A stretch of DNA of 64,000 nucleotides from Tabrizicola sp. (GCF_016792905.1 NZ_JAEULP010000049.1:11338-75337), one strand, 5' to 3'; positions 4,434-57,315 are shown, counted from the stretch's first letter. Numbers and translations are program-made. The notes: a model not told the origin generated them from the letters alone.

Positions 4434-4481
4434 GTTCCTCTCCACCCGCTTCGGACGAGAACGAACATAGTCCAAAGGTCA

Positions 4482-4497: not shown

Positions 4498-4559
4498 GCG
4501 AACCGATGAAATCTGGCGACACGGCAGAACGCCGGTGCCGGAGAATCGTCTTGCAAAAC

Positions 4560-6730: not shown

Positions 6731-6739
6731 GACAGTTCC

Positions 6740-7731: not shown

Positions 7732-7746
7732 CCCGATGCGCGAGAG

Positions 7747-7819
7747 TGTCCACGGTGGACAAGAATTTCAGGTCAATAATTTCAATGGGTTGTTCGCGGA
7801 TATTCAGGATTGGTTTACC
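7747..7819 (+). repeat. Copy 1 of a conserved element of about 60-75 nt. It begins with the perfect 15-bp palindrome TGTCCACGGTGGACA, followed by lower-GC sequence, and lies immediately 3' of fliP.
   Basis: Read directly. It aligns with the reverse complement of 55240..55301. The palindrome is identical in both copies, and the tail shares CAAnGGGTTGnTCGCG...TTTACC. Confidence 0.6.
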
Positions 7820-7860
7820 AGGGTGCGACGGTCGGCGCGGTGGGTTTTCCCCACCCATGC

Positions 7861-32980: not shown

Positions 32981-33571
32981 TCAGCAGGCGGCCAGCAGCC
33001 GCGCAACTGTCGAAACATAGTCCGTCCGCACCTCTGCGGGCGGACGAAGCCGTATTTCCAGCCGGTGAACCAGTTCCGGCACGGGCCGTCCGAACAGCTT
33101 GTCGGCCTCCGCCTCCCTGAACCCCGCGATCCGCACTGCCTCCAGCCAGGCCGAAACCTTGTCCGCCGCCTTGATCGCCTTCTTGATCGGCGCGGGCAGC
33201 ACCGCAGGCAGGCCAAAGCGCAGATGCACCGCCGCGGTCAGACGCCGGTCCAACTCGCCATAGCCGGGCCCCACGGCCGCCTTCACCGGGCTGATCATGT
33301 CGCCGATCACATATTCCGGCGCGTCATGCAGCACCGCCGCCAGCCGCCATTTCGCCGCGATGCCGGGATTGTCGCGGGCAAAGATCTCCTCGACCAGCAG
33401 CGAATGCTCGGCCACCGAATAGGGCCAGTCGCCCCGGGTCTGTCCGTTCCAGCGCGCCACGAAGGCCAGGCCATGCGCGATATCCTCGATCTCGATATCG
33501 ACCGGAGTGGGGTCCAGCAGGTCCAGCCTGCGGCCCGAGAGCATGCGTTGCCAGGCGCGGGGTTGTTTCAT
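32981..33571 (-). CDS. HD-domain phosphohydrolase (YfbR-like 5'-nucleotidase family)
   Basis: 196 aa with HSLLV...[17 protein letters not shown] motifs. Only the 3' third of track ORF 32981..35023 is real; the rest is antisense to ahcY. Confidence 0.7.
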
Positions 33572-33646
33572 TTGGCGGCCTTTGTTGTCTGCGTCGGTGA
33601 TCAATGCTATCTGCCCGCGCAACCCAGGATCAAGGAGAGCGCCAAG

Positions 33647-35053: not shown

Positions 35054-35088
35054 GTCAGACGACGAAAGTCAGACGACGAAAGTCAGAC
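35054..35088. repeat. 2.5 tandem copies of the 14-mer GTCAGACGACGAAA
   Basis: Read directly. The last partial copy supplies the stop codon of the GT2 gene (35083-35085). Confidence 0.8.
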
Positions 35089-36267: not shown

Positions 36268-36485
36268 CGGGGATCCTTCGGGTCAATCGCGCGGGTAGCT
36301 GGCCGTTGCGAAGATTGAAGCCTGCAACTGTGCCCAAATTGGGGCGTGGAGCGGCTGCAAACTTGACGCCAAAGGCCAGAGGTCATGGAAGCGGAGGAAT
36401 TTCGTCACAGTCTTGACTGTTTCCGGAATAACAGATGATCCCAAGACAGGCGGCCATCGAAACATGAACACGGAAACAGCGTGAC

Positions 36486-38309
36486 GTGCAGTCCGACGTG
36501 ATATCCCGACCCGAATCGCGGTCGCCAATCCTCTGGTGGATCTGCCTCGCCGGTGTTGCGCTGGTGGCCCTGACGGCGCTGCGCAGCCTGCCACAGATTG
36601 CCGATCTGCTGGTTGATGCCGATGGCGACGACCAGATGCGCCTGGTCGAGGTGCGCGACTGGCTGGCCGGGCAGTCCTGGTTCGATACCCACCAGTATCG
36701 CGTGCTCCCCCCTGACGGCATTTCCATGCACTGGTCGCGCTATGTCGACGCCGGTATCGCAACTGTTCTCCTTGCGGCTTCGACCATGCTCGCCGCACCG
36801 CAGGCCGAGCTTGCGACAGTGATCCTGTGGCCCAGCCTTCTGGCCTGCGGGATGGTTCTCCTCCACGCCCATGGCGCGAACCGCCTTCTGGGTCCGGCCG
36901 GTGCCCTGGGGGCGCCGGCGGTCTTTCTAAGCTGGAGCAAGCTCGGCGGAGAGTTCGTTCCGCCACGGATTGACCACCACAACGTCCAGATGCTCTGCGG
37001 TACAGCGCTGTTCTACCTGTCCGTCGTGCCCGGGCGAGCGCGGCTTGCGGGGGCGATTGCCGGTGTGGTGACGGCCTTCTCCCTGGCCGTCGGACTGGAG
37101 ATGCTGCCCTATCTGGCGACGATCTGGGGCCTGATGGCGCTGCGCCATGCCTTCGGCGAAGACCGGACCGGCGACTGGCTCTTGGGTTTCGGAGCGGCGA
37201 TCACCCCGGCCGCGCCCCTGCTGATGGCGGGCCAGACACCGATGGCAGACTGGGGCGTCGGGCATTGCGATGTCCTGGCCCCGCCCGTGCTGACCCTGGG
37301 CGCCGTCGGGGTCGTGGCAACGCTGGTGCCGGTCCTGGCCGAGCGCGTCATTTCCAGCCCGGTTTCCCGCATCGTGACCATGGTGGTGATCACCTGCGTC
37401 GGGCTGTGGCTTGCCTCTCCGCTGCTCGTGCCCTGCCTGGCCGGTCCCTACTCCAACTTACCGCCAGCGGTCCGCAAGATCATCGAGACGAACGTGGTCG
37501 AGGCTTTGCCGGCCTCGAAACTGGTCTGGTCCAATCCCGCCCTGCTGGCCCGTGTCCTTCTGCCGCCGGTCGTGATTGCGACACTGGCAGTGGCGGCCTT
37601 CTGGCGCTTGCGAAAGCGGTTGTCACCGATGCAGGCAAAGGCCCTTTTGCAGGCATTCGTGGTCGTGGGGGTCGGGCTTGGCTTTGCCCTTGCACAGATC
37701 CGCGCAGCCAACCTGATGACCCCCGCGGTGCCGTTGCTGGGCGGCTTTCTGGTCTGGGCCTTCACCCTGATCCCGCGCGCCAGCCTGTGGCGCATTCCGG
37801 CTGTTCTCGTGCTCCTGCTTGCCCTGCCCGCCGTTGTCGAACACGGTGCGAAGGCGCTTCCCGGCAGGTCGGTGGCAGGCGGCGGCAAGGGGGTTTCAGG
37901 GCCCGGAACAGAGCCGCTTCAGACCTGCCGGACCGAACCCGCCATGGCCGAGATCGCCAGCCTGCCGAAATCTCTTATCTTCTCGACCCTGAACCTCGGT
38001 CCCACGATCCTTGCCTACACCCCGCATTCCGTTACCTCGGCGACGTATCACCGCAGCCCGGACGCCATATGGAACGGGCTTGGCGCCTTCGAAACCCTGG
38101 ACGCGTTGCATCAGGCGCTTGTCCGCTCGGGGGCGGACTATCTGGTTCTGTGCGTCGGGGGCGCGGTCGAACAGGCTAACCCGGACATCCGCGCGCTGAT
38201 GTCGGGCAGCCCGCCCGGCTGGCTGGTCGACGTGACCGCCGGTCGCACCCTGGTGCGGGTGTTCCAGGTGGGGAAAGCCTCGCTTCCCCGGGCGGGCGCC
38301 ACGCCATGA
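36486..38309 (+). CDS. Large polytopic membrane protein, candidate GT-C-type glycosyltransferase (GtrC/ArnT-like role)
   Basis: 607 aa with at least 10 predicted TM helices. It has an acidic first loop (VDADGDDQMRLVEVRDW) and a C-terminal soluble domain of about 150 aa. Its stop overlaps the gtrA-like ATG as ATGA. Confidence 0.55.
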   Translation: MQSDVISRPESRSPILWWICLAGVALVALTALRSLPQIADLLVDADGDDQMRLVEVRDWLAGQSWFDTHQYRVLPPDGISMHWSRYVDAGIATVLLAASTMLAAPQAELATVILWPSLLACGMVLLHAHGANRLLGPAGALGAPAVFLSWSKLGGEFVPPRIDHHNVQMLCGTALFYLSVVPGRARLAGAIAGVVTAFSLAVGLEMLPYLATIWGLMALRHAFGEDRTGDWLLGFGAAITPAAPLLMAGQTPMADWGVGHCDVLAPPVLTLGAVGVVATLVPVLAERVISSPVSRIVTMVVITCVGLWLASPLLVPCLAGPYSNLPPAVRKIIETNVVEALPASKLVWSNPALLARVLLPPVVIATLAVAAFWRLRKRLSPMQAKALLQAFVVVGVGLGFALAQIRAANLMTPAVPLLGGFLVWAFTLIPRASLWRIPAVLVLLLALPAVVEHGAKALPGRSVAGGGKGVSGPGTEPLQTCRTEPAMAEIASLPKSLIFSTLNLGPTILAYTPHSVTSATYHRSPDAIWNGLGAFETLDALHQALVRSGADYLVLCVGGAVEQANPDIRALMSGSPPGWLVDVTAGRTLVRVFQVGKASLPRAGATP

Positions 38310-38701
38310 TGCTGCCTCGCGACACCACCTTGCCCCGCTTTGTCGCGGTCGGCGGCGCGCTCGCCATGCTCTACGCCATGCTTGCCGCGCTGGCGACGTC
38401 GCAGTTGTCCCTGCCGAAGGCGGTGGCCTCGGGCCTCATATGGACGCTTTTCATCCCGGTCGGGTTCTGGATCCACCGGCGTTTCACCTTTGCCGCGCGT
38501 CGCCCGCATCGCCTGGGTCTGTGGCTTTATGCCGCGACACAGGTGCTGGGCATCGGGATCGTCGCCGCCGTCAGCTACCTTCTTGCCAGGGGCATGTTCT
38601 GGCCTGATCTTCTGGTGCATCTGCTTGCATCGGTGCTGGCGGCGATCACCAGCTACCTGATCACCCACTGGCTCGTCTTTCCCGACCGATCGGCAGACTG
38701 A
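38306..38701 (+). CDS. GtrA-family membrane protein (putative lipid-linked sugar translocase)
   Basis: 131 aa with 4 TM helices and a GtrA-like pattern (RFVAVGGALAMLYAML...HRRFTF). Confidence 0.7.
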   Translation: MMLPRDTTLPRFVAVGGALAMLYAMLAALATSQLSLPKAVASGLIWTLFIPVGFWIHRRFTFAARRPHRLGLWLYAATQVLGIGIVAAVSYLLARGMFWPDLLVHLLASVLAAITSYLITHWLVFPDRSAD

Positions 38702-43023: not shown

Positions 43024-43311
43024 GGCGGTCTCCTACGGATCGGGCATACAGGCCGCGCGACCCTCGCCACAAGCCTTGACCGACGGAAAATCCTCCCGAC
43101 GGCGTTGAACGGTCACGCCGCCGTGAAAATTCCGCCGCTCCGGGGGTTGAAATGCCACTCTCCCTTCCCACTTCCCCTTGGCGGGCCGGGCCCCTCTGAC
43201 GACGCCAGTCGTGATGTCGGACCGCATCGAGAAATCGTGCTCGATGTCAGCCCGGCGCCCTGCCCCTGAAAAGGCTGACCTCTCGACGCACCTATAGAGA
43301 GGCAAACGGGG

Positions 43312-44334
43312 ATGGAATTCCTCTTCCTGACATTCCTGGCCAAGCCCCTGTGGCTGTGGCTTCTGTTCCTGGCCATCGTCATCGCGCTGATGGTCTTCGA
43401 CCTGGGCGTCCTGCACAAGGACGACCATGAACTTGGCGTCGCGGAAAGCCTGAAGCTTTCCGCCTTCTACATCGGTATCGCGATCCTGTTCGGCGGCTAC
43501 ATCTGGTGGGCCTGGTCGAACGGCACGCTGGTGACAAGCGACGGCACCAATCCGGTCGCGGCCTATTTCCAAGGCTACATCATCGAGAAGGTGCTCTCGA
43601 TCGACAACGTCTTCGTCATCTCGCTGATCTTCGGCTACTTCGCCATTCCCCGGAAATACCAGTACCGCGCCCTCGTCTGGGGCATCATCGGCGTGATCAT
43701 CCTGCGCGGCATCATGATCGCCATCGGGGCCGAGCTGATCGCGGCCTACGACTGGGTGACGCTGGTCTTCGCCGCCTTCCTGGCCTTCACCGGCTTCAAG
43801 ATGCTGGTGGTGCCGGACAGCGATCCGGACCTGTCGCAGAACCCGGTCGTGCGTTTCATCTCGACCCACATGAACGTGACCAAGCGCCTGCACGGGCAAA
43901 GGTTCTTCGTCCGCCAGCCGAACCCCGTCACCGGCAAGCTGATGCTCTATGCCACGCCCCTCTTCGTGGCGCTGATCGTGATCAACTTCGCCGACCTGGT
44001 CTTCGCGGTCGACTCGGTGCCCGCGATCTTCCTGATCACCACCGACACCTTCATCGTCTACACCGCGAACATCATGGCGATCCTCGGCCTGCGCGCGCTC
44101 TACTTCGCGTTGGCGGCATTGGTCCACCGCTTCCACTACCTGAAATACGCACTGGCCGTGGTGCTGATCTTCATCGGCCTCAAGGGGTTCTACAGCTACT
44201 TCTTCGGCAAGTTTGACCCTTACCTGTCGCTGGCGATCACCGTGGGCATCATCGTCGCGGGCATCGTCTATTCGCTGTGGAAAACGCGTGGGGACGACGA
44301 TGGGCACGGGACCGCAGTCAAGGCGGCAGAGTAG
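43312..44334 (+). CDS. TerC/Alx-family integral membrane protein
   Basis: 340 aa with TerC repeats (EKVLSIDNVFVI, AVDSVPAIF). Confidence 0.85.
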   Translation: MEFLFLTFLAKPLWLWLLFLAIVIALMVFDLGVLHKDDHELGVAESLKLSAFYIGIAILFGGYIWWAWSNGTLVTSDGTNPVAAYFQGYIIEKVLSIDNVFVISLIFGYFAIPRKYQYRALVWGIIGVIILRGIMIAIGAELIAAYDWVTLVFAAFLAFTGFKMLVVPDSDPDLSQNPVVRFISTHMNVTKRLHGQRFFVRQPNPVTGKLMLYATPLFVALIVINFADLVFAVDSVPAIFLITTDTFIVYTANIMAILGLRALYFALAALVHRFHYLKYALAVVLIFIGLKGFYSYFFGKFDPYLSLAITVGIIVAGIVYSLWKTRGDDDGHGTAVKAAE

Positions 44335-46642
44335 CGCCGCCCTGCCTGATCTGGCTTGCAACATCGTGGTCGCCGGGCACCCCGGCGATCCGCAACACCG
44401 AAAGCCCCAGTGTCACGTCCACCAGCCCGTCCGGGCGGCGCGTGACCTGGGGCGGCTTCGGCCAGGCGGTCAGATCATAGACCTGCTCGGCCTGCCACTG
44501 GCTGACATGGGTCACCCCGCCATAGGCCAGGACGAAGACCACCGCCCCCGGCCCCGGATCGACATGGGTAACCCCGGTGCCCGCATGGATCGTGTCGTTC
44601 CCGCCCCCCAGTCGCACCCGGTTCCGCCCCGGCCCGGTATGGACCACCGAGGATCCGTCGCCGTCATGGATCTCGTCATTGCCGTGCCCGCCGAAAATCT
44701 TGTTCCGCGCCGCCGTACCGATGATCGTGTCATCGCCCGTGCCGCCGTCCAGCACATCGCGCCCGCCGCCACCGACCAGCCGGTCATTCCCCGCCCCGCC
44801 GTAGAAGTAATGCCGCGAGCTTTCGCTGGCCGAGATCGCCCGCAGCACATCGTCGCCCTCGCCGCCGTAGAACGTGGCCCCGCCATATATCGGACCGATC
44901 ATCACGTCGTTCCCGCGTGAGCCGCGGACGCTAACCATCACCCGCTCGGTGGTCTCGAAATGGATCGGGCTGTCCGGATGGGCCACGATCCGCAGCATGC
45001 GCGAGGATTTCTTCGCCGCCTCCGCATCCTCGTGCCGCGCCAGCACCGTGGCGATGCGGATGTTCTCGACGTTCATCGGGCAGTGCAGGACATAGCCATC
45101 CGGCCCGCCCAGATACCACAGCGTATCGGTCCCGCCCTCCTTGGTTTCCCTGATCTTCTCGGCCTCGGCCCCGTAGGCCCAATAGTTGTCGTTGCCCCGA
45201 CGCCCCTCCAGCACGACCGAGCCATCGACCGCCATCATCGCGTTCACGCCATCCGCCGGGTTCTCGAACCCGCGCAGGTCCAGGCCCAGCTCCAGCGCCC
45301 CCTTCACCAGCTCGCCCCGCAGCACATCCATGGGCGCCGTCGCGATCAGGTTCTCGGTCTCACCGGGGTCGGCGACCACGTCGTAGACATGCTCCTCGCC
45401 GTTCGGATAGCGGAAATAGCGGAACTGCCGGTAGCCCTCGATGGAGGGCCTGACCGACAGCGTTCCGAAGACCGAGGTAATCGGTGATTTCGTGTCGTCG
45501 AAGCTGCCGAAACTCGCGTCGACCAGCGGGAGCAGGCTTTGCCCCGAGGTCCAGTCCGGTCGCGGCGGCAATCCGGCCAGCTGCATCACCGTCTTGGGAA
45601 AGTTGTGCAGAGACACTGGCAGGTCCACCACCCGGCCCTCCGTCATCCGGGGCGACCAGATCGCCAGCGGCACATGCGCCGCCGAATCCCACTGGCTCAT
45701 CTTGTGGAAACTGTCGTGGTTCCCAAGGTTGAAGCCGTTGTCCGACAGGAAGATCACCGTGGTCCTACCGCCCAGAGGCGATGCCGCCAGCGCGTCCAGG
45801 AACCGCCCGATCTCATGGTCCACATGGCTGATCGCGGCGAAGTAGGCGCGGACGACCTGCCGCCAGCCGTCGTCCCCGCCCTTTTCCGGCGTCCAGTTGC
45901 CATTGGCGATATAGGCCGCTTCATAGACCGCAAAACCCGGCGGCGGGCCGTAGTAATCCTCCGGCGCCGCGATGTCGGGCCAGCGGATCGCGGCGGGATC
46001 GTACAGCTGGTAGAAGCGGTCCGGGCATTCCAGGTTGTAATGCGGGTGCTTGAACCCGAGCTGGATCAGGTGCCGCCGCTTCGGGTCCGCCCTCCCGAGG
46101 AAATCAATCGCATTCTGAGCGACGGTGAAATCGTAGAACAGATGGTCCTGCGATCCGTCATCGTCCGGATAGTTGATGCCCTTGATCCCCGGTCCACGGT
46201 CCAGATAGACCTTTTCCCCCGGTCGCGGGCCGCTGTCCTGCGCGGGCACATCCTCGTGGAACAGCACCCGGCGATAACGCTCCGGCATCGGCTTGTAGGT
46301 CGCATCCACCTTGCCGGTGGTAAAGGTGTAGAACCCCGCCCGGCGCAGGTCATAGGCCCAGGCCTTCTCGGGCGGCAGCACCTGGCGCCAGAAGCGGTTC
46401 AGGTCGACAAGCCCGGTGCGGAACGGCGACAGCCCCGTGGCCAGTTCCGCCCGGCAGGGCGCGCACAAGGGGATCGTGGCATAGGCGTTGCCGAACCGCA
46501 CTCCCGCATTCAGCAGCCGGTCGAGGTTCGGGGTCTGGATGGTGATCCCGAACGTGTCGCGCCAGGTGAAGACGTCGATCATGTCATCCACCCAGATGAC
46601 ACAGATGTTGTCGCCCGCGATGCTGTCCGCCGTGAAACCCAT
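44318..46642 (-). CDS. Cys-type sulfatase fused to C-terminal RTX (hemolysin-type Ca-binding) repeats
   Basis: CAPCR (C-x-P-x-R) follows an N-terminal VIWVDDM segment; FLSDNG is also present. The C-terminus carries GGEGDDVL, GGAGNDRL, GGGRDVL, GTGDDTI, GGHGNDEI and GGGNDTI nonapeptides. There is no signal peptide. Confidence 0.8.
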   Translation of the reverse strand: MGFTADSIAGDNICVIWVDDMIDVFTWRDTFGITIQTPNLDRLLNAGVRFGNAYATIPLCAPCRAELATGLSPFRTGLVDLNRFWRQVLPPEKAWAYDLRRAGFYTFTTGKVDATYKPMPERYRRVLFHEDVPAQDSGPRPGEKVYLDRGPGIKGINYPDDDGSQDHLFYDFTVAQNAIDFLGRADPKRRHLIQLGFKHPHYNLECPDRFYQLYDPAAIRWPDIAAPEDYYGPPPGFAVYEAAYIANGNWTPEKGGDDGWRQVVRAYFAAISHVDHEIGRFLDALAASPLGGRTTVIFLSDNGFNLGNHDSFHKMSQWDSAAHVPLAIWSPRMTEGRVVDLPVSLHNFPKTVMQLAGLPPRPDWTSGQSLLPLVDASFGSFDDTKSPITSVFGTLSVRPSIEGYRQFRYFRYPNGEEHVYDVVADPGETENLIATAPMDVLRGELVKGALELGLDLRGFENPADGVNAMMAVDGSVVLEGRRGNDNYWAYGAEAEKIRETKEGGTDTLWYLGGPDGYVLHCPMNVENIRIATVLARHEDAEAAKKSSRMLRIVAHPDSPIHFETTERVMVSVRGSRGNDVMIGPIYGGATFYGGEGDDVLRAISASESSRHYFYGGAGNDRLVGGGGRDVLDGGTGDDTIIGTAARNKIFGGHGNDEIHDGDGSSVVHTGPGRNRVRLGGGNDTIHAGTGVTHVDPGPGAVVFVLAYGGVTHVSQWQAEQVYDLTAWPKPPQVTRRPDGLVDVTLGLSVLRIAGVPGDHDVASQIRQGGATLPP

Positions 46643-48061
46643 CTAGAGGCCCGTCAGCTTCAACCGTGCCGGCAGCGCCCAGCGTCGCACCGCGCCCTCG
46701 CCGAAATCCCCGCGCAGGGCCCCCCGGTTCGCAGGATAGGGCCCGTCGCCGGGGGCCGACGCATGGGCATAGGTCACGAAGACCTCGCCCTCGGGCCGTT
46801 TCGAGCATTTCAGCACCACGACCTTCGCGTCGTCCTTGTCGATCCCGACCCCGGTGATCCGCGCCCCGTTCGTCACCCCGTCCAGCGCGAAGCCCGCCAA
46901 CTTGCCCGCGACGAAGGGATCACCGCCGTCGATCACCAGCCCCTCCTGCGCCTCGCAGATCAGACGGATACCGCCCTCGGACCACTCCGCCAGCTGGATC
47001 ACCGGACACAGCCAGCGGCCCCCGCCCTGCACCGCCAGCAGCGCCTCGGCCAAGAGCACCGCCTTCTCCGCCCGGCCTTCGTCGGTCAGCCGCCCGGTGT
47101 CGTCGATCCGGAACGCATAGGAGGGTGCTGCAAAGACCAGCTGGTGATCGCCGTGGTTCCAGGACAGTTCCCACTGCCCCTCCAGCCCCGGCCCGCGCGT
47201 CACGCTCAGGGTTCCGCAGTCGAACGCCGACAGGAACACCGGCCGCGCCAGCCCCTGCCTGGCCATGCCCCGGGTGATCCGCTCCATCAGCGCGATCATC
47301 CCGTCGCGGTAGGCCGTCGCGTCGCCGGTCAGGTCCTCCAGCGTATAGTCCAGCACCACCGCCAGAACCTGCGCCCCCACCCCCAGCCGGGCGGAGGCCG
47401 CCACCAGATTGGCAAAGCACTGGTCCAGATTGGCCATTGCCGCCTCGGTCCCCAGATCATGCGCGGTCGCCGCCGTGTCCGTCTCGGTCCGCACGACCAG
47501 CACGGGCAACGGCTGGTGCGCAACCCGCCGCCGGGCCAGCAACTCGTCCGCAACCAGCGCCTCGACCGTCAGCTCGCGCAAGGGCTCCAGCTCGGCCGTC
47601 GCCACCGCCTCGCCTTCGCCCCCCATGCCCACCGCGCCGATGTCGTCGCCCGGGGTCAGCACATGCCAGCGGAACCGCGCCGGACCGGGCGAGCCCAGCC
47701 CCGCCCGCGCCCCGCCGATGCCCAGCACCGCCATGAGCGGCCCCCGCGCCTCGGCGATGACCGCGCCCCCGGACACATGCCGCCGATAGCCCCGCGCAGA
47801 GTCCGCGCCCGGCAGGTTGGCCTGGAAGAACAGCCAGTCCCCCTCGCGCCGGGGGGCCCAGAGGTCGATACCCTCGGGCAGATCGGGCAGCGGCAGCGTC
47901 TCGCCCACCACCGCCTGCGGCTTCAACTCCAGCCGCGCGGCGATGTCGGCGATCACCTTGTCGGACAGGCGCAGCACCAGCCCCGTCTCGTCATAGCCGA
48001 TCACGTCGCCGTTCTCGGCCCGGATGATCACGCCTTCGGGGGGGATCGGTTTTTCCGCCAT
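46643..48061 (-). CDS. Hypothetical protein of 472 aa, no family recognised
   Basis: Coding-like composition. Its ATG overlaps the upstream stop by 1 nt (TGATG), and its TAG abuts the sulfatase ATG. Confidence 0.6.
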   Translation of the reverse strand: MAEKPIPPEGVIIRAENGDVIGYDETGLVLRLSDKVIADIAARLELKPQAVVGETLPLPDLPEGIDLWAPRREGDWLFFQANLPGADSARGYRRHVSGGAVIAEARGPLMAVLGIGGARAGLGSPGPARFRWHVLTPGDDIGAVGMGGEGEAVATAELEPLRELTVEALVADELLARRRVAHQPLPVLVVRTETDTAATAHDLGTEAAMANLDQCFANLVAASARLGVGAQVLAVVLDYTLEDLTGDATAYRDGMIALMERITRGMARQGLARPVFLSAFDCGTLSVTRGPGLEGQWELSWNHGDHQLVFAAPSYAFRIDDTGRLTDEGRAEKAVLLAEALLAVQGGGRWLCPVIQLAEWSEGGIRLICEAQEGLVIDGGDPFVAGKLAGFALDGVTNGARITGVGIDKDDAKVVVLKCSKRPEGEVFVTYAHASAPGDGPYPANRGALRGDFGEGAVRRWALPARLKLTGL

Positions 48062-48951
48062 CAGAACAACGCCTTGAAACGCTCGGGCAGCCGGTAGACG
48101 CCCTTGGGCCGCGCCCCGCCGGGCGAGAAATAGACCACCTTCTTCTCGCGCCAGCCCTCGACCATCTCCTTGCGGAACTCGGGGAAATCCACCGTTTCGG
48201 CCCGGGGCTTCTCCTTCGACAGCGCCTGATAGGTATCCCAGGCGGTGTCCCAGCCGGTCTTCTGGCGTTCCACCTCTTCCAGCGCCCCGCTCTGGATCAC
48301 GCGCTGGGCGCGTCGTGTGGCAAGCCGTCCTTCCGTCATGTCGTGGTCGATGAAACGCAGGTGGAAAAGGTAGAGATGCGGGTCGAGATGCAGCTTCGGA
48401 TGGTTGGCGAAATGCCCGCCCGGCGCCATGTCGATCTTGTCGCAGGTGATGCAGGGCTTGGCGTAATTCGCGTTCAGCCGGAAGATGCGCCGCACGTCCA
48501 GGATATTGCGCCCCGCGCTGATCGGCTCCGGCTCCAGCGTCGGGTTGTGCACCATCTCGATCGCGAAGGGCGTGATCACCCGCGGCCCGCCCCTGACGGC
48601 ATACTGCTCCAGATAGTCCGGCAGGCTGTCCGACACGGCCGGATCGACACAGACGATCTCGTCCACATCCCCCACCAGCACCCAGTTGTAGAAATTGGTG
48701 AACCCCGTGGTCAGCCGCGACAGCATCTGCCAGCGGCGCTGGTTGAAGCAGTTCCGCGTCTCGTCAAAAGGCAGATAGATGACATTGCAGCCTTCGGCGA
48801 TCTTCCTGTGCTCGGGGTCGCCGCCGTGGCTCAGGACGAACAGGTTCTCGCGGCCCAGCTGGCGACCGTAATATCCGACCCAGCGCGAGAGGAAGAAGTG
48901 ATCCCCCCCGACCATGGTCATCGCCATCATCCGGCCGCGTGTCTGGTCCAT
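48061..48951 (-). CDS. GT-A-like glycosyltransferase-family protein (DXD)
   Basis: FFLSRWVGYYGRQLGRENLFVLSHGGD...VLVGDVDEIV. The start is uncertain (48951 preferred; the track start at 49083 lies inside repeat A). Confidence 0.5.
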   Translation of the reverse strand: MDQTRGRMMAMTMVGGDHFFLSRWVGYYGRQLGRENLFVLSHGGDPEHRKIAEGCNVIYLPFDETRNCFNQRRWQMLSRLTTGFTNFYNWVLVGDVDEIVCVDPAVSDSLPDYLEQYAVRGGPRVITPFAIEMVHNPTLEPEPISAGRNILDVRRIFRLNANYAKPCITCDKIDMAPGGHFANHPKLHLDPHLYLFHLRFIDHDMTEGRLATRRAQRVIQSGALEEVERQKTGWDTAWDTYQALSKEKPRAETVDFPEFRKEMVEGWREKKVVYFSPGGARPKGVYRLPERFKALF

Positions 48952-49030
48952 GTCCCCGCCCTGCCCATGGCCCCGCATAGCATGAGGTCGAAGCCGGGGC
49001 CTAGAGGGGAGCCGAGAGGAAACTCCCAAG

Positions 49031-49154
49031 CCTTTCACATTTGCCCAAGTATCCTCGGGGGTTTGGGGGTGGAAAACCCCCAATTGCCCGAGCCGGTTGC
49101 GCGTTCTTCACGCGCAGAGGCGAGACAAGGAGTCTTCGCGCGTCAGCGCTCAAT
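49031..49154 (-). repeat. Intergenic composite repeat, copy A (REP/MITE-like)
   Basis: The 40-nt core 49115-49154 matches 55092-55131 at 39/40 positions. It also shares GCCCGAGCyGGTTG and a CTTTCAC...AAnTATCC arm, and carries an extra hairpin GGGGGTTT...AAACCCCC. Confidence 0.8.
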
Positions 49155-49183
49155 CTGAAAACCGCCCGCACTGGGCACGACGG

Positions 49184-50146
49184 TCAGGTCGCAGCCCCCA
49201 CCTTCCGCGCGTTCACCGCGCCGCGCCGCGCGCGGCGGATGAAGACCTTCTCCTCGTCAGGCAGGTCCTGCCCCAGCCGCAGCATCGCGTCCGCCGCCTG
49301 GATCACCAGCTGGTGCCGCCCCCGGTTCGCTGCCGCCGCCAGCACTGCCCGCTGCCATTTCGTCACCGCCCGCCGCGCGCGGTAGGCCTGCCAGAACGCA
49401 TGCCCCGCGCCATTGCCCTCGACCAGCGCGTCGATCAGCAGCGGGAAGGTCCCGGTCTTCAGCACCACCCGGATCGCCTCATGCGTGGCGAAGGGCAGCC
49501 GCAGAAGCTGCACGTTCGCCCCGGCAAGCCGTGCGGCATGGGCGCGGTCCTCGGGCACCATCGGGTCAAAGACCACCACCGCCCGGCGGATGTAGGGTAC
49601 CGCCGCCGCCGCATCGAGAAACGGCATCCCTTCCCAGTTCGACCGCTTGACCGAATAGGGAAACCGCGCCTCGAAGGGTGCGATCACCCGGTTCATCGTG
49701 GTCTGGGGCGAGAAGGCCAGCACCCGCGCCTCGGGGATCAGCGGCGCGAAATTCAACGCCGCGAACCCCCCCATCGAGGCGCCCGTCAGCACCACCCGGC
49801 GGAAGCGGCGAAAGAAGCCCCGCTCCTCCAGTCCCCGCAGCAGGGCAGGGGCGGTCGGCTGGCGGAACCAGTCCTTGGCATGGCTCTGCACCCCCAGCAC
49901 CGAATGCCCCATCGGCTCCAGCCGCTTCCAGGCCCAGGGCCCGCGCGGCCAGCCCTCGTCGATCGTGGCGAGGTTGTCGAAGGACACCACCAGCGCCCCG
50001 TCCAGCGCCCCGTCCTGATCCGGTCCCCGGCCCTCGAACCACAGGTTCGCATGCTCGCCCCGGATCAGGAAGCGCCGCGCAGCCACGGCCTCGTCCAACC
50101 CCATCTCGGGCGGAGTATCCAGTGGCGGTGGGGCTTCGGCGTCCAC
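49184..50146 (-). CDS. Alpha/beta-hydrolase-like protein (GxSxG)
   Basis: VVLTGASMGGFAALNF nucleophile elbow. 320 aa. The GTG start abuts the upstream stop; an alternative ATG lies at 50104. Confidence 0.55.
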   Translation of the reverse strand: MDAEAPPPLDTPPEMGLDEAVAARRFLIRGEHANLWFEGRGPDQDGALDGALVVSFDNLATIDEGWPRGPWAWKRLEPMGHSVLGVQSHAKDWFRQPTAPALLRGLEERGFFRRFRRVVLTGASMGGFAALNFAPLIPEARVLAFSPQTTMNRVIAPFEARFPYSVKRSNWEGMPFLDAAAAVPYIRRAVVVFDPMVPEDRAHAARLAGANVQLLRLPFATHEAIRVVLKTGTFPLLIDALVEGNGAGHAFWQAYRARRAVTKWQRAVLAAAANRGRHQLVIQAADAMLRLGQDLPDEEKVFIRRARRGAVNARKVGAAT

Positions 50147-50893
50147 TCAAAAGGCCCAGCGCAGATAGCGGCGCAGCGCCGACAGCGTCGCCCGGTCCCC
50201 CGGATCGACCGAGCCCTGCAGGCACCGGTCGGGCCAGAAGATCACCTCGTGCAGCAACGACTGGCCCAGCATCTTCGCAAGCCCGCTCCGGTTTGACCGG
50301 CAGCCGATGAAGAAATCCGCCCGGTGCGCCAGCCCCGGCACATTGGCGCTGGCCTTTGCCTCCTCCTCGCCCATCCCCAGGCGCAGGCTGCGCCCGTCGA
50401 AGGACATCAGCGCCAGCTTCACTCCGCGCCCCTTCGGCACCGGCAAGGACAGCGACACCGAGTTCATCTTGTCCTTCGCCAGAAGCCGTCCCTCGCCCTC
50501 GGTCAGGAAGATCATGTTGTGCGCCTGCCCGGTGAAGACCGACGCCAGCGTCTTGGCCTCGCCGTCCGAGGTGTAGACCACCGCCATGGTGAAGGCCTCG
50601 ACCTCGGGCGCAAAGCCCGGCAGGGTGAAGCCGCAGTTCATCCCGTCGCGGCAAAGCAGCGCGCCCGGCGGCCCCGGCTCGAACCGACTGTTTCCCGTGT
50701 TCGGACCTGCCGCCACCGCCTCGACCGCCATCCGCGATTCCCGCCAGCCGGTGATCGCCTCGCCCGTCCGGACCAGATCCTTTTCGCGGGCGATGAACCG
50801 CGCGCCGCCGCTGCGCAGGACCATCTCCGAAAGCAGCCGGTCCTCGCCTCCGATCAGGGCGCCGGGTGGCAGCCTCATCGCGATTTCAAGCAT
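50147..50893 (-). CDS. Hypothetical beta-rich protein (possible LamG / concanavalin-like fold)
   Basis: I prefer the ATG at 50893 because it overlaps the upstream TGA by 1 nt (the track TTG start is at 50929). The fold guess rests only on alternating hydrophobic patterns. Confidence 0.5.
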   Translation of the reverse strand: MLEIAMRLPPGALIGGEDRLLSEMVLRSGGARFIAREKDLVRTGEAITGWRESRMAVEAVAAGPNTGNSRFEPGPPGALLCRDGMNCGFTLPGFAPEVEAFTMAVVYTSDGEAKTLASVFTGQAHNMIFLTEGEGRLLAKDKMNSVSLSLPVPKGRGVKLALMSFDGRSLRLGMGEEEAKASANVPGLAHRADFFIGCRSNRSGLAKMLGQSLLHEVIFWPDRCLQGSVDPGDRATLSALRRYLRWAF

Positions 50894-51699
50894 CACGCCT
50901 CCCCCTCCTGGCCATCTTGCCGGGGGCAAGGACCTGCCGCAAGCCCGCGCGCCCGGCCCCCGGTCGCAACCCCGCGGACAATCGGCATCACCTGCGACAG
51001 CACCGCCGCACCGAAAGCCGCATTGTGGTGCTCGAAATCCTGCTTTCTCAGATGGTCGTCCACCGCATATTCAACGCCGGTGAAGATGCCATCGACCACC
51101 GTCTGTTCCGGCTGGCGCAACAGCGTGATGCCGTCCTCTGCCGCAACCGCTTCCAGGATGCGCCAGAACCCCGGCACCCGCTCGGCGATCAGCACCGCGA
51201 CCTCGGGCGGAAAGGCCCTGGCCAGCTGCGGGGCATTCTCGGTGGCATAGGCGGTCGGCGCCAGCAGGATGCGGGCTGTCCCGTCCGCTGCCAGCCCCCG
51301 GGCCAGCTGATAGCCCTGAAGCCGACGCAGATCGTCGGTCAGGATGCGCCGCTGCAACCCCTCGCTCAGCAGCGGGCCGGCGGACAGCAGGGTCAACACC
51401 CGCTTGAACAGCGGCCAGACATAGACCCGCGCGCCCATCACCAGGATGACGTCGAAATCGGCGGCAGGCAGGAAGGTCCGCCCCTTCGCGTTGAACTTGG
51501 CAAAGCGCATCGCGGTGAACTCGTCCGTCGGATGGATCGCCCCGTCGCGGACCCGCAAAAAGCGGAACCGGCCCCCGACATGGCCCCAGTATTCCAGATC
51601 GACACCCGAGACATCGACCAGCCCCTGAACCTCGGCCTGTTTCAGGCAGGCATAGTGGCTGTCCCCGAAGATGCAGAACCGCGGCAGGCCCTCAGCCAT
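50893..51699 (-). CDS. Hypothetical protein with an N-terminal FGDSH motif (possible SGNH-like hydrolase)
   Basis: RFCIFGDSHYAC. 268 aa. Its start overlaps the GSCFA gene end by 8 nt. Confidence 0.5.
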   Translation of the reverse strand: MAEGLPRFCIFGDSHYACLKQAEVQGLVDVSGVDLEYWGHVGGRFRFLRVRDGAIHPTDEFTAMRFAKFNAKGRTFLPAADFDVILVMGARVYVWPLFKRVLTLLSAGPLLSEGLQRRILTDDLRRLQGYQLARGLAADGTARILLAPTAYATENAPQLARAFPPEVAVLIAERVPGFWRILEAVAAEDGITLLRQPEQTVVDGIFTGVEYAVDDHLRKQDFEHHNAAFGAAVLSQVMPIVRGVATGGRARGLAAGPCPRQDGQEGEA

Positions 51700-52792
51700 G
51701 GCGCCGATCCGGCGCGAAGGCGGCCAGGATCTCCTCTTCGCAGCGCAACTCCTCGGCTTCGCTCAATTCCGGCTCCGGCGCCTCTTCCGGCAACGGCACC
51801 AGGGCAGCGGGTGCGGGCGGCAGGGCCGCCACGGCACCGAAGGCCGCCGCCTGGTCGCGGAAGAACTGCGCCATCACATGATCCACCCCTTCCGGCAGCA
51901 CCGACCGCAGGTTCGATGCGAAGAAGCGCCCCCGATAGGCCGGATGGGTGATGATCTCATAGGAGGGAAAGTAGTCCACCCGCGGCTGCGCCCGCACCAG
52001 CTCGGACGCCACCGCGCGCAGAAGCGACTTGGAATGGCTGGTCGCCGTCAGCACATGGTTCCCCGAGGCTGTCGCCGTCAGCGGCACGGGCGAGACGGTC
52101 AGCAACACCTTCAGCCCCCGGTTCACCCGGAACAACAGCCGCAGGGCCGCCGTCATGTCCGCCATCAGCGCGGCGAAGCCATGGTTCACGAAGCCATGCG
52201 CCTCCGCATCGAACGTGCCCGCCACCGTGCCGGGGCAGACCGCGTATTCCACCCCGGTCGCGCGGTCCTGCCAGGCCTCGGTCAGCCCCATGGTGAAGAC
52301 GAAGACATGCGACCCCTTCACCGCCGCGGCAATCGCCGCCAGCGTTTCCCTGCGCGAGGCGCAAAGCTCCTCCGGGCTGACAAACCCTCCCGGCTCCACC
52401 CCCGGACGGAACGGGTCGTAGAACCGGCCGTCCTTCTCCCAGACGGCCTCGGGAACCGGCACATCGGTCAGCGCCCAGCTCAGCCACTGGTGCAGCATCC
52501 GGGGCGTGTAGATGTTGCCGGTGCGGAAGCTGAAGGTGCCGTAGTGATAGTCCTTCCGCTGCTCGGCCGTCAGCCCTGCCGGTCCGGGCTCGAAATCCAG
52601 CCAGCGATAGCGCCGCGCGACCAGCGCTTTCGCGAAATGCTGCGCAAAGCATGACCCCGCGGTGACAATCCGGGTTCGCCGCCTGATTTCATGCCGGGGC
52701 TTCCACAGGCCCGTGATCTCCATCGCATCCCGTTCGGCGACGGCGGTGCGCCAGAAGCGGTCCTCGGGCAAGGTCTCATAGGGGTGCGACAT
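51692..52792 (-). CDS. GSCFA-family protein
   Basis: The family-defining motif RIVTAGSCFAQHF. 366 aa with an acidic C-terminal tail. Confidence 0.7.
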   Translation of the reverse strand: MSHPYETLPEDRFWRTAVAERDAMEITGLWKPRHEIRRRTRIVTAGSCFAQHFAKALVARRYRWLDFEPGPAGLTAEQRKDYHYGTFSFRTGNIYTPRMLHQWLSWALTDVPVPEAVWEKDGRFYDPFRPGVEPGGFVSPEELCASRRETLAAIAAAVKGSHVFVFTMGLTEAWQDRATGVEYAVCPGTVAGTFDAEAHGFVNHGFAALMADMTAALRLLFRVNRGLKVLLTVSPVPLTATASGNHVLTATSHSKSLLRAVASELVRAQPRVDYFPSYEIITHPAYRGRFFASNLRSVLPEGVDHVMAQFFRDQAAAFGAVAALPPAPAALVPLPEEAPEPELSEAEELRCEEEILAAFAPDRRHG

Positions 52793-52904
52793 GCGCGGGC
52801 GGTCCTTGGGCTTTGACCGGAATAGGACGAACTGGCTGCGGGAAGGTCAACCGCTTTCCTTTGCCGCTCTCCACAGGCCTCCTGCGGCGTGGTAGCCTCG
52901 CCCC

Positions 52905-54161
52905 ATGCCCAGCCTCTGCCGCGACTGCCTGACCCTGACCGATGCGGCGCCCTCCCGCTGCCCCTCCTGCCGGTCGCCACGCATCGTGGCGCACGTTGAA
53001 CTGGCCCAACTCTCCATCGCCCACATGGACTGCGACGCCTTCTATGCCTCCGTCGAAAAACGCGACAACTCCGCCCTGCGCGACCAGGCGGTCATCGTCG
53101 GCGGCGGGCAGCGCGGCGTCGTCTCCACCTGCTGCTACATCGCCCGGATCAAGGGCGTCCGCTCCGCCATGCCGATGTTCCAGGCCCTGAAGCTCTGCCC
53201 CGAGGCGGTGGTGGTGAAACCCCGCTTCTCCGCCTATACCGAAGCCTCCCGCGCCATCCGCGCGATGATGGAGGAGCTGACGCCTTCCATCGAACCCCTC
53301 TCGCTGGACGAGGCTTTCCTCGATCTCACCGGCACCGCCCGCCTGCACGGCGCGCCCCCCGCCGTGCTGCTGGCAAGGTTGACCAAGCGGATGGAGGACG
53401 AGCTGGGCCTCACCGGCTCCATCGGCCTCTCCCACAACAAGTTCCTCGCGAAAATCGCCTCCGACCTCGACAAGCCGCGCGGCTTCTCGGTCATCGGCAA
53501 GGTCGAGACGGAAAGCTTCCTGAAGCCGAAACCCGTCCGGGTCATCTGGGGCGTCGGCACCGCCACCCAGACCGCGCTTGAATCCGCAGGCATCCGCACC
53601 ATCGCCGACCTCCTCCGCTGGGACCGCGCCGACCTGACCGCCCGGTTCGGCCAGATGGGCGACCGGCTCTGGCATCTGGCGCGGGGGATGGACACCCGCC
53701 GGGTGAACCGCGACGAAAAGCTGAAGTCGATCTCGAAAGAGACCACCTTCTTCGAGGACACCTCTGACCCCGACCTCCTCGACGGCCATATCTGGCGCTT
53801 GTCCGAACAGGTGGCGGACCGCGCCAAGGCCAAGCGCCTGTCGGGCCGCACCGTGACCCTCAAGCTGAAGAAGGGCGATTTCCAGCTCGTCACCCGCCGC
53901 CATGCCCTGACCGACCCCACCCAGCTCACCGACCGCATCTACCGCGCCGCGAAGGACCTCTTCGACCACGCAGGCACCACCGGCCCCTTCCGCCTGATCG
54001 GCGTCGGCATCTCCGACCTCGCCCCCGAGGACCAGGCCGATCTTTCGCAGGACCTCCTCGACCCCAACGCCACCAAACGCGCCGCCGCCGAACGCGCCAC
54101 CGACGCCATCCGCGCCAAGTTCGGCGCCGAGGCGATCATCAAGGGCCGCGCCCTCCGCTGA
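52905..54161 (+). CDS. dinB: DNA polymerase IV (Y-family) with an N-terminal Cys4 extension
   Basis: HMDCDAFYASVEKRDN and SLDEAFLDLTG catalytic motifs. The N-terminus reads CRDC-x12-CPSC. Confidence 0.9.
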   Translation: MPSLCRDCLTLTDAAPSRCPSCRSPRIVAHVELAQLSIAHMDCDAFYASVEKRDNSALRDQAVIVGGGQRGVVSTCCYIARIKGVRSAMPMFQALKLCPEAVVVKPRFSAYTEASRAIRAMMEELTPSIEPLSLDEAFLDLTGTARLHGAPPAVLLARLTKRMEDELGLTGSIGLSHNKFLAKIASDLDKPRGFSVIGKVETESFLKPKPVRVIWGVGTATQTALESAGIRTIADLLRWDRADLTARFGQMGDRLWHLARGMDTRRVNRDEKLKSISKETTFFEDTSDPDLLDGHIWRLSEQVADRAKAKRLSGRTVTLKLKKGDFQLVTRRHALTDPTQLTDRIYRAAKDLFDHAGTTGPFRLIGVGISDLAPEDQADLSQDLLDPNATKRAAAERATDAIRAKFGAEAIIKGRALR

Positions 54162-54260
54162 CCCGCTCCTCGCTTGCGTCCCGCATCGCTCCTCGCTGAT
54201 CGTCGGTCGCGACGGCGCGACACCGTAGGGTGCGCTACAGCGCACCACCGACGCGTCCAA

Positions 54261-54953
54261 TCAGGGCCGCCGGATGAAGTCGCCCATATGCACTTGACGA
54301 TAGAACGGTATGTTGTCTGCCCGCCCCGTTGCAGGCCCAAGTGCCGGTTCGGGATACGGCCCCAACCACCCCAACGGGCCCTCCACCACTCCCTCCGTCA
54401 CCGCCTCATCGGTCACCTCCACCACCACCGTCGTCAACCTCACCCCCGGCCCGAAACTGGCGGCAAGATCGCCCGGATCGACCAGCTTCACACTGGCCGG
54501 GTCCGCGATTTCGCCAAATGTCACCAGCATCGGATACTGACCCTCCGGCACCGTGATCACCCCCGCCGCCCGGTCGCGCTTGTCGCGGACCTCATCGAAC
54601 AGCGCCCCGTCGATCGCCCGCCCCTCGCGCCCGGCGATCGAGGCCCCGGCGACCGAGCCCATGTATTCCGTCGTCCCCGCCCCCTTGAGAAGCGCAAAGA
54701 GGAACCGCCCCGGCGCGACCTCCACCACCACCGCCTCGCCGGTCAGGTCGTAATACCAGCCCATGCCATCCCAACGGATCCATTGCTTGCGCCAACTGAC
54801 CGCGCTGACCGAGGAGGCCGAGACCTCTCCCGCCGGGGTCGCGACCGTGACGGTCAGCTTCTGGCGCCAAGCGTAGCGGTCCTTGTTGACCACCGCCCAG
54901 ACCAACGCAAACACGACCGAAGCAATCGCAGCAACAACGAGAACCTTCTTCAT
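54261..54953 (-). CDS. Hypothetical membrane-anchored protein
   Basis: 230 aa beginning MKKVLVVAAIASVVFALVWAVV (anchor). No family recognised. Confidence 0.55.
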   Translation of the reverse strand: MKKVLVVAAIASVVFALVWAVVNKDRYAWRQKLTVTVATPAGEVSASSVSAVSWRKQWIRWDGMGWYYDLTGEAVVVEVAPGRFLFALLKGAGTTEYMGSVAGASIAGREGRAIDGALFDEVRDKRDRAAGVITVPEGQYPMLVTFGEIADPASVKLVDPGDLAASFGPGVRLTTVVVEVTDEAVTEGVVEGPLGWLGPYPEPALGPATGRADNIPFYRQVHMGDFIRRP

Positions 54954-55028: not shown

Positions 55029-55131
55029 GCTTTCACCTGGCACCAAATATCCCCGCCGGAGGCCCTTCGCCCGAGCTGGTTGGCCGAAGGCCAGAGGCGA
55101 GACAAAGAGTCTTCGCGCGTCAGCGCTCAAT
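55029..55131 (-). repeat. Intergenic composite repeat, copy B
   Basis: Same orientation as copy A. The 40-nt core matches at 39/40, and its hairpin is GGCCGAAGGCC instead of GCGCGTTCTTCACGCGC. Confidence 0.8.
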
Positions 55132-57240: not shown

Positions 57241-57315
57241 GGGCGGTTAGCTCAGCGGTAGAGCACTACGTTGACATCGTAGTGGCCACTGGTTCGATCC
57301 CAGTACCGCCCACCA
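57241..57315 (+). tRNA. tRNA-Val (anticodon GAC), with an encoded CCA end
   Basis: Cloverleaf read by hand: acceptor stem GGGCGGT/ACCGCCC, anticodon stem CTACG/CGTAG with loop TTGACAT, T-loop GGTTCGATCC, and a 3' CCA. Confidence 0.9.

Follow-up and report, generated by a model that had tools for sequence, protein, structure and literature searches.

A seven-gene cluster with an RTX sulfatase in Tabrizicola sp., a candidate surface-glycan tailoring locus of Paracoccaceae with relatives in phage tail modules

We examined a cluster of seven genes, here called g1 to g7, in a 64,000-nucleotide (nt) stretch of DNA from Tabrizicola sp. (GCF_016792905.1, NZ_JAEULP010000049.1:11338-75337). The whole stretch is referred to as the window, and positions are counted from its first letter. 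The seven open reading frames (ORFs) occupy 44318-52792, all on the minus strand and all with a high third-position GC content; the overall GC content of the cluster equals that of its surroundings. An earlier note, made from the sequence alone, had placed seven minus-strand genes here and proposed that they form a glycan- or polymer-tailoring module. We found all seven at the coordinates it gave, and TAGSCFAQH, FGDSH, GASMGG, DVD, CAPCR and the repeats-in-toxin (RTX) repeats can all be read in the translations. Its family guesses were also essentially borne out: a GSCFA protein, an SGNH-like protein with an FGDSH motif, a beta-rich protein (which has a LamG fold), a GxSxG protein, a GT-A glycosyltransferase (GT) with a DXD motif, and a Cys-type sulfatase with RTX repeats. 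The features are listed below, with protein lengths in amino acids (aa).

51692-52792, minus strand: g1, GSCFA-family protein (SGNH clan), 366 aa, accessory
50893-51699, minus strand: g2, SGNH-motif protein, 268 aa
50147-50893, minus strand: g3, LamG/ConA-like beta-sandwich protein (lectin-type), 248 aa, core
49184-50146, minus strand: g4, alpha/beta-hydrolase-like protein, 320 aa, nucleophile elbow G-A-S124-M-G
48952-49183, minus strand: g4-g5 spacer, 232 nt, holding a 40-nt dispersed repeat
48061-48951, minus strand: g5, GT-A glycosyltransferase-like protein (Glyco_tranf_2_4), 296 aa
46643-48061, minus strand: g6, 472 aa, tailspike-like SASA/CE20 (SGNH) fold with additional beta domains, core
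45293-46642, minus strand: N-terminal domain of g7 (aa 1-450), Cys-type S1 sulfatase; the whole of g7 is 44318-46642
44483-44935, minus strand: RTX nonapeptide repeats of g7 (aa ~570-720)
44318-44482, minus strand: C-terminal ~54 aa of g7 and stop codon, candidate targeting region for a type I secretion system (T1SS)

A genome scan with g6 yielded 80 loci, 56 of which had enough flanking sequence for counting neighbours. All 80 belong to Paracoccaceae or to unclassified metagenome-assembled genomes (MAGs) labelled Rhodobacterales, Alphaproteobacteria or Pseudomonadota. The closest g6 relatives come from Tabrizicola and an unclassified Rhodobacterales MAG (89% identity) and from Rhodobacter sp. 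SY28-1 (86%), the most distant from Roseicyclus, Gymnodinialimonas and Celeribacter (41–46%). Both g3 and g7 accompany g6 in every one of the 56 loci, g5 in 40, g4 in 39 and the pair g1 and g2 in 30, with g1 always beside g2 where it is present. The full order g1-g7 was seen in 24 loci, g3-g7 in nine and g6-g3-g7 in 13, and the rest carry inverted or transposed accessory blocks. There are seven distinct arrangements, inversions and reshuffling included, and the genes remain together throughout. With the seven-gene order in 24/56 loci and g3 and g7 next to g6 in 56/56, the arrangement is far beyond chance, and synteny excludes a chance adjacency of the seven genes. Conservation of the gene neighbourhood, which the earlier note had named as a check on its proposal, therefore extends across Paracoccaceae genera. 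The module consists of a core (g6-g3-g7) and two accessory pairs, g4/g5 and g1/g2; a gene fusion described below ties g4 to g6. The earlier note had missed this structure. In the distant relatives g7 is still 67–70% identical, versus the 41–46% of g6 and 32–39% for g3. Such identity at this divergence indicates strong purifying selection on g7.

The gene junctions in the window are as tight as had been noted before. The genes g1 and g2 overlap by 8 nt (51692-51699), g2 and g3 by 1 nt in a TGATG at 50893, and g5 and g6 again by 1 nt in a TGATG at 48061; the TGA of g3 abuts the GTG of g4 (50147/50146), and the TAG of g6 abuts the ATG of g7 (46643/46642). The g2/g3 overlap is peculiar to this window and is created by a Gly/Ala/Arg-rich C-terminal extension of ~24 aa in g2 (50893-50970). 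In relatives, g2 has no such extension and its stop codon lies 40–60 nt before g3. The start of g5 is the ATG at 48951 (MDQTR..., kept in 21 homologues), not the TTG at 49083, so that the g4-g5 spacer measures 232 nt; in relatives it ranges from about 7 to 230 nt. This spacer holds the 'Repeat A' that the earlier note had included in the gene series. According to blastn it is a dispersed element of 40 nt (49115-49154), and another copy, 97.5% identical and in the same orientation, lies at 55092-55131. Only the closest relatives have it in the g4-g5 spacer; in other Tabrizicola-like loci it is found elsewhere, for example upstream of a gene for a 230-aa protein. It is an insertion whose position varies among relatives and not a part of the module, and as a dispersed repeat with variable location it was rejected as a functional element. 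It is probably a small element of the repetitive extragenic palindrome or miniature inverted-repeat transposable element type (REP/MITE-like).

The sulfatase g7 matches Pfam Sulfatase (PF00884) with 4.3e-34 (118.6 bits, cut-off 25). Its best match in the PDB is choline sulfatase 6fny (phmmer, 3e-33), in an alignment that spans the whole catalytic domain. The formylglycine motif C60-A-P-C-R64 (CxPxR) is invariant in 29 family members, and the metal ligands D19, D20 and D301-N302 are conserved together with K111 (LysA), H199 (HisB) and K314 (LysB). The catalytic set of an S1 sulfatase is nevertheless incomplete, since HisA is missing: it is replaced by an invariant D113 (GKVD versus GKMH in 6fny). 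The chemistry of g7 may therefore differ from that of known sulfatases. HisA is kept in the phage-type and Thioclava-type relatives discussed below.

Near its C-terminus, g7 carries the tandem GGxGxDxUx repeats of RTX proteins (Pfam HemolysinCabind, 3.2e-12, 46.6 bits, cut-off 23) in three stretches between aa ~570 and 720. NCBIfam matches point to RTX_toxin and, weakly, to an SMc04171-type Ca-repeat family and to the repeat region of the EglC glycanase. Invariant columns make up 7% of the C-terminal tail versus 48% of the sulfatase domain. The tail contains a D-L-x-x-W motif, in which L, D and W are invariant in the phage and Thioclava relatives. Judging from its sequence, the poorly conserved stretch of the last ~50 residues is a candidate secretion signal, poor conservation there being usual for T1SS substrates. 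No other protein of the cluster has any export feature. T1SS components are absent from the conserved neighbours in related loci, and neither a T1SS nor a polysaccharide exporter was found in the related islands that were scanned. T1SS genes are often unlinked to the gene of their substrate. Literature searches for RTX sulfatases in Rhodobacterales returned nothing relevant.

The g6 family is small, with 129 clusters at 50% identity among 1.84e9 proteins, and none of the clusters that were tested has a Pfam match. We compared an AlphaFold2 (AF2) model of g6 (predicted local distance difference test (pLDDT) score 91.5) with known structures using Foldseek. In the PDB it matched the tailspike of cyanopodophage Pan3 (9vyh, 6e-19), the sialic-acid esterase SIAE (8f9p, 1e-9) and the CE20 carbohydrate acetylesterase XAC1771 (4.5e-9), and in BFVD unnamed viral proteins down to 5e-19 as well as tail-fibre esterases. 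The fold is thus that of the SASA/CE20 group, but the catalytic Ser and His are absent. Block I reads G116-G117-x-R119, without a Ser, in every member including the phage versions, and there is no conserved block V His (the blocks were located from the alignment and the secondary structure of the model, not by three-dimensional superposition). Because both residues are missing, g6 is probably a glycan-binding derivative rather than a serine esterase. The earlier note had counted three or four putative serine-hydrolase folds; g6 does add a fourth esterase-like fold, but without a nucleophilic Ser it is probably no serine hydrolase.

The second core protein, g3, has no sequence relatives beyond its own family of about 260 proteins. 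In its motif F-I-G-C-R-x-x-R, the G-C-R and the second R are invariant. Its AF2 model (pLDDT 85.6) is a beta-sandwich of the LamG/ConA type, and the Foldseek matches in the PDB were a trans-sialidase lectin domain and the LG domains of agrin, neurexin and perlecan (E-values of 2e-7 to 1e-6, probability 1.0). By its fold g3 belongs to the LamG/ConA-like proteins and is a putative lectin.

Among the accessory proteins, g1 gives a full-length match to Pfam GSCFA (7.7e-47), a family with no characterised member (PMC9487903). Its neighbour g2 has no Pfam match with hidden Markov models (HMMs) and no PDB match, and it displays the conserved blocks of the SGNH clan: in 25 homologues G12-D13-S14 is invariant and H15 nearly so (block I), and N70 (block III) and D221/H224 (block V) are invariant. 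Both proteins are therefore SGNH members, g1 by its Pfam family and g2 by its blocks. In g4, the residues G122-A-S124-M-G126, D194/D200 and H203/H222 are invariant; its score with Pfam Esterase (16.5 bits) is below the cut-off of 22, and it has no PDB relative by sequence. A link of one g4-like protein to the capsule proteins XcbB/CpsF was too weak to be used (NCBIfam, E = 0.083). The GT-A assignment of g5 follows from the family HMM (Pfam PF13704, Glyco_tranf_2_4, 3e-9, 37.7 bits, cut-off 27.5) together with an invariant DXD motif, D95-V-D97; the mean column identity is 81%. Literature searches on PF13704 returned nothing relevant. No Pfam, NCBIfam or PDB sequence match above threshold was obtained for g2, g3, g4 or g6, and when g2-g6 were compared singly or as family profiles with PDB, Pfam, NCBIfam and PHROGs, only the Pfam match of g5 was significant. 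As the earlier note had supposed, a match to a characterised enzyme from a described pathway was obtained for none of the seven proteins.

In distant genera, the core is surrounded by glycosyltransferase and methyltransferase genes. It lies amid a ~620-aa GT92-like/Glyco_tranf_2_4 protein with a methyltransferase-like C-terminal region (F0) and a ~270-aa protein that is highly conserved and whose GT32-type DXD match is weak (F2), and it also occurs with GT61, further Glyco_tranf_2_4 proteins, a Rhamno_transf protein and small methyltransferases. Genes of this sort border the core in Roseicyclus, Gymnodinialimonas, Celeribacter and on a plasmid of Aliiroseovarius. That plasmid, from Aliiroseovarius sp. 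M344, is mobilizable and carries the entire island, a GT90 gene among it, beside transposase genes. None of these additional transferases is encoded in the window.

A second type of locus joins two of the proteins. On a plasmid of Thioclava, a 744-aa protein combines a g4-like domain (34% identity, BLASTP 2e-34) with a g6-like domain (1e-16), and its gene overlaps by 4 nt the start of the gene for a 703-aa sulfatase with an RTX-like C-terminal region, 33% identical to g7. A gene for a formylglycine-generating enzyme (FGE; Pfam 1.2e-70) is adjacent, and two further g4 paralogues are present. The two domains also share one polypeptide in P0217 (hhalign, 1.7e-33), and beyond the Thioclava protein this fusion is represented by four or more further clusters. 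In metagenomic loci the pair of fusion and sulfatase is accompanied by F0-like (GT92-like), F2-like (GT32-like) and g5-like genes; in one such locus (L084) the g5 homologue is 40% identical. The association of g4, g6, sulfatase and transferases thus persists down to about 28% identity between g7 and the fusion-type sulfatases. One of the Thioclava sp. FTW29 plasmid genes, RPE78_RS01980 (L083, 7699-8631), is annotated as a phosphoadenosine phosphosulfate (PAPS) reductase. It has no PAPS_reduct or other Pfam or NCBIfam match and is a g4 paralogue (31% identity, 7e-25), so that the annotated name looks wrong and was not used.

N-termini resembling those of tail fibres are seen in other long relatives of g6. 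On contig L085, from an NCBI assembly, the genes for major tail, chaperone, tape-measure and tail-fibre proteins are followed by a three-gene unit. It encodes a fibre of 730 aa with a C-terminal g6-like domain, a protein of 257 aa and, with HemolysinCabind repeats, a sulfatase of 741 aa. The same unit of fibre, ~250-aa protein and RTX sulfatase is present in three IMG/VR contigs (L086, L087 and L090), making four viral or prophage contigs in all, which are related to Paracoccus phages, and a metagenomic contig (L093) carries the g6-like fibre and the ~250-aa gene up to its end. In IMG/VR, single-sequence scans found nothing and a search with a narrower alignment succeeded. The L087 unit is located downstream of tail sheath, tube, tape-measure and tail proteins, and its tape-measure protein is 75% identical to the counterpart in Paracoccus phage vB_PyeM_Pyei1, a phage with an ordinary tail fibre that encodes a 284-aa protein downstream of the genes for its tape-measure and tail proteins. 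The L085 fibre is 34% identical to a protein of Paracoccus phage Pthi1. The relationship to the cellular genes is distant: the phage sulfatases are only 27–28% identical to cellular g7, and the phage ~250-aa protein has no detectable sequence similarity to g3 (hhalign probability below 3%). The isolated-phage genomes in INPHARED contain no g6-like protein and no such RTX sulfatase covering at least 80% of the query, and literature searches on phage tail sulfatases found none. A location in a tail module is seen only in the distant relatives on L085-L087 and L090. The cluster in the window shows no hallmarks of a prophage; its flanks are dinB, terC and aroC, and g1-g6 have no PHROG structural matches.

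Two further features of these phage contigs were observed. The fibre gene of L086, whose 1109-aa product ends in the g6-like domain, directly follows a gene for a 2582-aa DarB-like antirestriction protein (148-7896; PHROG 10089, 5.7e-257). Separate RTX proteins of the hemolysin type, which bind Ca2+, are encoded close to the lysis genes in phage Pyei1 (p71, L092 16041-17186) and in L087 (17483-18742), so that RTX repeats turn up repeatedly in these phages without being tied to the sulfatase.

With moderate confidence, we interpret the seven genes as that section of a cell-surface glycan locus, specific to Paracoccaceae, which tailors the glycan. The carbohydrate-type folds, the linkage to GT and methyltransferase genes, the g4-g6 fusion and the reuse of the domains in phage tail regions all suggest a surface glycan as the target. 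In such a system, g7 would be exported, most simply via an unlinked T1SS, and would remove a sulfate ester, or a similar anionic ester, from a surface polysaccharide. The tailspike-like, esterase-derived g6 and g3 with its LamG lectin fold may help to recognise this polysaccharide. The predicted Ser-Asp-His alpha/beta hydrolase g4 and the SGNH pair g1/g2 might remove or transfer O-acyl groups, while g5 would build or decorate the glycan, a task in which GT92-like, GT32-like and GT61 enzymes and methyltransferases could take part in other loci. A g6-like fibre domain and an RTX sulfatase in Paracoccus-type temperate phages would be expected if the same glycan served as phage receptor or barrier. 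The folds and motifs, the synteny, the fusion and the phage context were observed directly in this analysis; the substrate, the enzyme activities, the export and any physical or functional cooperation of the proteins are inferred. The polymer-editing idea of the earlier note, namely deacylation or desulfation of an extracellular sulfated polymer, likewise an inference, gains from the glycan context, both the GT and methyltransferase genes of distant loci and the phage tail homologues. It loses from the lack of a sulfotransferase, FGE, T1SS or exporter in the ORFs and islands scanned. Our interpretation points the same way as that idea, on evidence that is different and stronger.

Several observations weigh against our interpretation. 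No FGE gene was detected by tblastn in the 64-kb window or within 10 kb in any of the 80 related loci. The window ORFs that were scanned include no sulfotransferase, no FGE or anaerobic sulfatase-maturating enzyme (anSME), no T1SS pair of ATP-binding cassette (ABC) and membrane fusion protein (MFP) and no polysaccharide exporter, and the related islands scanned contain no sulfotransferase. The glycosyltransferases F0 and F2, which accompany the core elsewhere, are absent from the window and from the closest relatives, and the Thioclava locus lies amid catabolic and transport genes, not glycan-synthesis genes. None of the N-termini of g1-g6 appears hydrophobic or signal-peptide-like as read from the translations (no predictor was run), so these proteins may act in the cytoplasm and g7 outside. 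The replacement of HisA in g7 and the Ser-less block I of g6 are to be added to this list.

Other explanations have to be considered. The secreted exo-sulfatase g7 and the esterases g4, g1, g2 and g6 might strip environmental organosulfates, such as algal or mat polysaccharides, for sulfur or carbon, in which case the linkage to GT genes would be incidental. RTX exo-enzymes are commonly nutrient-scavenging hydrolases, the nearest solved relatives of g7 are catabolic choline and ulvan sulfatases, and the Thioclava homologues lie beside an FGE gene, a LysR regulator, an ABC transporter, an amidase and aminotransferases. One RTX sulfatase was already predicted in a survey from 2010 (PMC3034196). 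We consider this explanation unlikely, since in dozens of genomes GT-A, GT61 and methyltransferase genes are linked to the core, even in fusion-type loci whose sulfatase is only ~28% identical to g7, no uptake or sulfur-assimilation genes adjoin the cluster in the window, and nutrition would hardly explain a prophage tail-fibre neighbourhood. That same neighbourhood suggests another origin, in which g6-g3-g7 would be a domesticated tail-fibre or lysogenic-conversion cassette with which the cell remodels its own glycan and alters its susceptibility to phages or gene transfer agents (GTAs), as superinfection exclusion or receptor control. In four viral contigs the g6-like domain is indeed the C-terminal part of fibre-like proteins and is followed by the RTX sulfatase, the fold of g6 is nearest to a phage tailspike and to BFVD viral proteins including tail-fibre esterases, and the Aliiroseovarius island is on a mobilizable plasmid with flanking transposases. 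Temperate phages commonly carry surface-glycan-modifying genes beside their tail-fibre genes. However, the cluster in the window is surrounded by neither phage structural genes nor an integrase or att-like features, and its GC content does not deviate. The phage sulfatases have diverged far from cellular g7, and it is just as likely that phages captured these genes from their hosts. An old cellular function agrees with the strong purifying selection and with chromosomal positions that are fixed across genera. A phage derivation seems improbable to us.

A third possibility is that g4, g6, g3 and g7 form a complex in the cytoplasm, in which the RTX-like region is a scaffold for interactions and no export signal, and process a lipid- or nucleotide-linked glycan intermediate, or that the glycosyltransferases modify g7 before its export. 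None of the seven proteins has a signal-peptide-like N-terminus in its translation and T1SS genes are not linked. The junctions are of the translational-coupling type, the g4-g6 fusion suggests a physical association, and the associated glycosyltransferases look soluble and cytoplasmic, with no match to a membrane or export domain. Nevertheless, the folding of RTX repeats requires Ca2+ at extracellular levels, the C-terminal tail of g7 with its poor conservation is typical of T1SS substrates, and the association with phage tails points to an extracellular target. The literature searched holds no precedent for glycosylated RTX sulfatases. Altogether, an intracellular complex appears very unlikely.

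The tailoring of a surface glycan therefore remains our preferred interpretation. A more far-reaching version of it, which we regard as speculative and rather doubtful, is that g6-g3-g7 constitutes an unrecognised surface-glycan desulfating machinery common to Paracoccaceae cells and their temperate phages. The phage sulfatase, mounted or co-expressed beside the tailspike-like domain, would strip sulfate from a sulfated capsule or exopolysaccharide during adsorption or for lysogenic conversion, and cells would edit the same glycan and thereby control their susceptibility to phages and GTAs. If this were true, the viral copies would be the first phage sulfatases known to be associated with a tail, and it would follow that a sulfated surface polymer is widespread in Paracoccaceae. 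Already the tailoring model, if correct, would identify a surface polymer of these bacteria, abundant in freshwater and the sea, that is sulfated or otherwise ester-decorated, an extracellular sulfatase of the RTX type by which this polymer is edited, and a new kind of phage receptor-processing enzyme. Since g2, g3, g4 and g6 belong to no described sequence family and the family of g1 is uncharacterised, the cluster offers a genetically tractable context for orphan families, made up of partners conserved together, the fusion of g4 with g6 and the relatives in phage tail modules. For enzyme evolution, the Asp that invariably takes the place of His in g7 and the esterase fold without a Ser in g6 pose testable questions.

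As for the surroundings, the cluster is bordered by a divergent dinB gene (52905-54161) and a convergent terC gene (43312-44334), with aroC beyond terC. The ORFs at 52776-54260 (minus strand, 494 aa) and 43033-44364 (minus strand, 443 aa) were rejected as genes; they are antisense shadows of dinB and terC, and their low-complexity, Gly/Ala/Asp/Arg-rich translations are of the shadow type typical of high-GC DNA. A promoter and terminator scan gave no signal above background, and an Rfam scan found no element within the cluster, its only hits being a terC RNA motif and a tRNA outside. The terC RNA motif (57.5 bits, gathering threshold 39.9) is at 43178-43229 on the plus strand, directly upstream of the TerC-family gene. 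Next to dinB, at 54261-54953 on the minus strand, is a gene whose 230-aa product has a hydrophobic segment at its N-terminus and matches nothing in Pfam; it accompanies dinB in related loci with variable conservation (43–81%). Further away, a Gtr-like trio at 35083-38701 comprises a GT2 gene (35083-36267, minus strand), a 607-aa ORF (36486-38309) with no Pfam match and an N-terminus that looks hydrophobic, and a GtrA-family gene (38306-38701). It may represent a second, unrelated surface-glycan modification system. The call of the AdoHcyase ORF (33065-35035) is about 190 codons too long at its 5' end. Housekeeping genes in 2039-7731, 18740-25032 and 57241-57315 include a FliF gene, a pair of UvrD-helicase and PD-(D/E)XK nuclease genes (AddA/AddB-like) and a tRNA-Val.

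RTX-type extracellular polymer-tailoring enzymes and phage tailspike esterases are known kinds of proteins, whereas a sulfatase-centred version with partner families such as these, common to chromosomal glycan islands and prophage tail modules, is undescribed in the searchable literature. The AlgE proteins of Azotobacter, which are mannuronan C-5 epimerases, and ExsH of Sinorhizobium have Ca2+-binding repeats and/or are exported by a T1SS. The glycanases PlyA and PlyB of Rhizobium provide a precedent for T1SS-exported polysaccharide-processing enzymes in alphaproteobacteria (PMC3034196). What these four have in common with g7 is an enzyme with Ca2+ repeats and/or T1SS export whose gene lies among or close to polysaccharide genes and which works on the completed polymer in the extracellular space, although in the case of g7 this action and the export are predicted. 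The catalytic domain of g7 is that of a formylglycine-type sulfatase instead of an epimerase or glycanase, there are no linked T1SS genes, and its partners g6, g3 and g4 have no counterpart in those systems. As a sulfatase, g7 resembles choline sulfatase BetC and other S1 enzymes (6FNY, 6HR5, 6HHM) in its full catalytic domain with CxPxR, metal ligands, LysA, HisB and LysB. It differs from them by its distance (best 3e-33), by Asp113 in place of HisA and by a C-terminal RTX extension of ~320 aa, and its genomic context consists of glycan or phage genes, not of a bet operon.

The protein g6 shares an SGNH core with beta-sandwich additions with the Pan3 tailspike (9vyh), SIAE (8f9p) and XAC1771 (7kmm), the Foldseek values ranging from 6e-19 to 4.5e-9, and g6-like domains are found at the C-terminus of phage tail-fibre proteins. 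In contrast to SASA/CE20 esterases, it has G-G-x-R in place of the catalytic G-x-S-x and no identifiable block V His, and it shows no sequence-level match to Pfam or PHROG esterase families. The Gtr glucosylation and Oac O-acetylation cassettes of temperate phages adjoin tail-fibre genes. The phage copies described here resemble them in that predicted surface-glycan-altering enzymes directly follow tail-fibre genes. They differ in that a sulfate ester would be removed, rather than glucose or acetyl added, and in that the same genes are also chromosomal and vertically conserved across genera, with no prophage around them.

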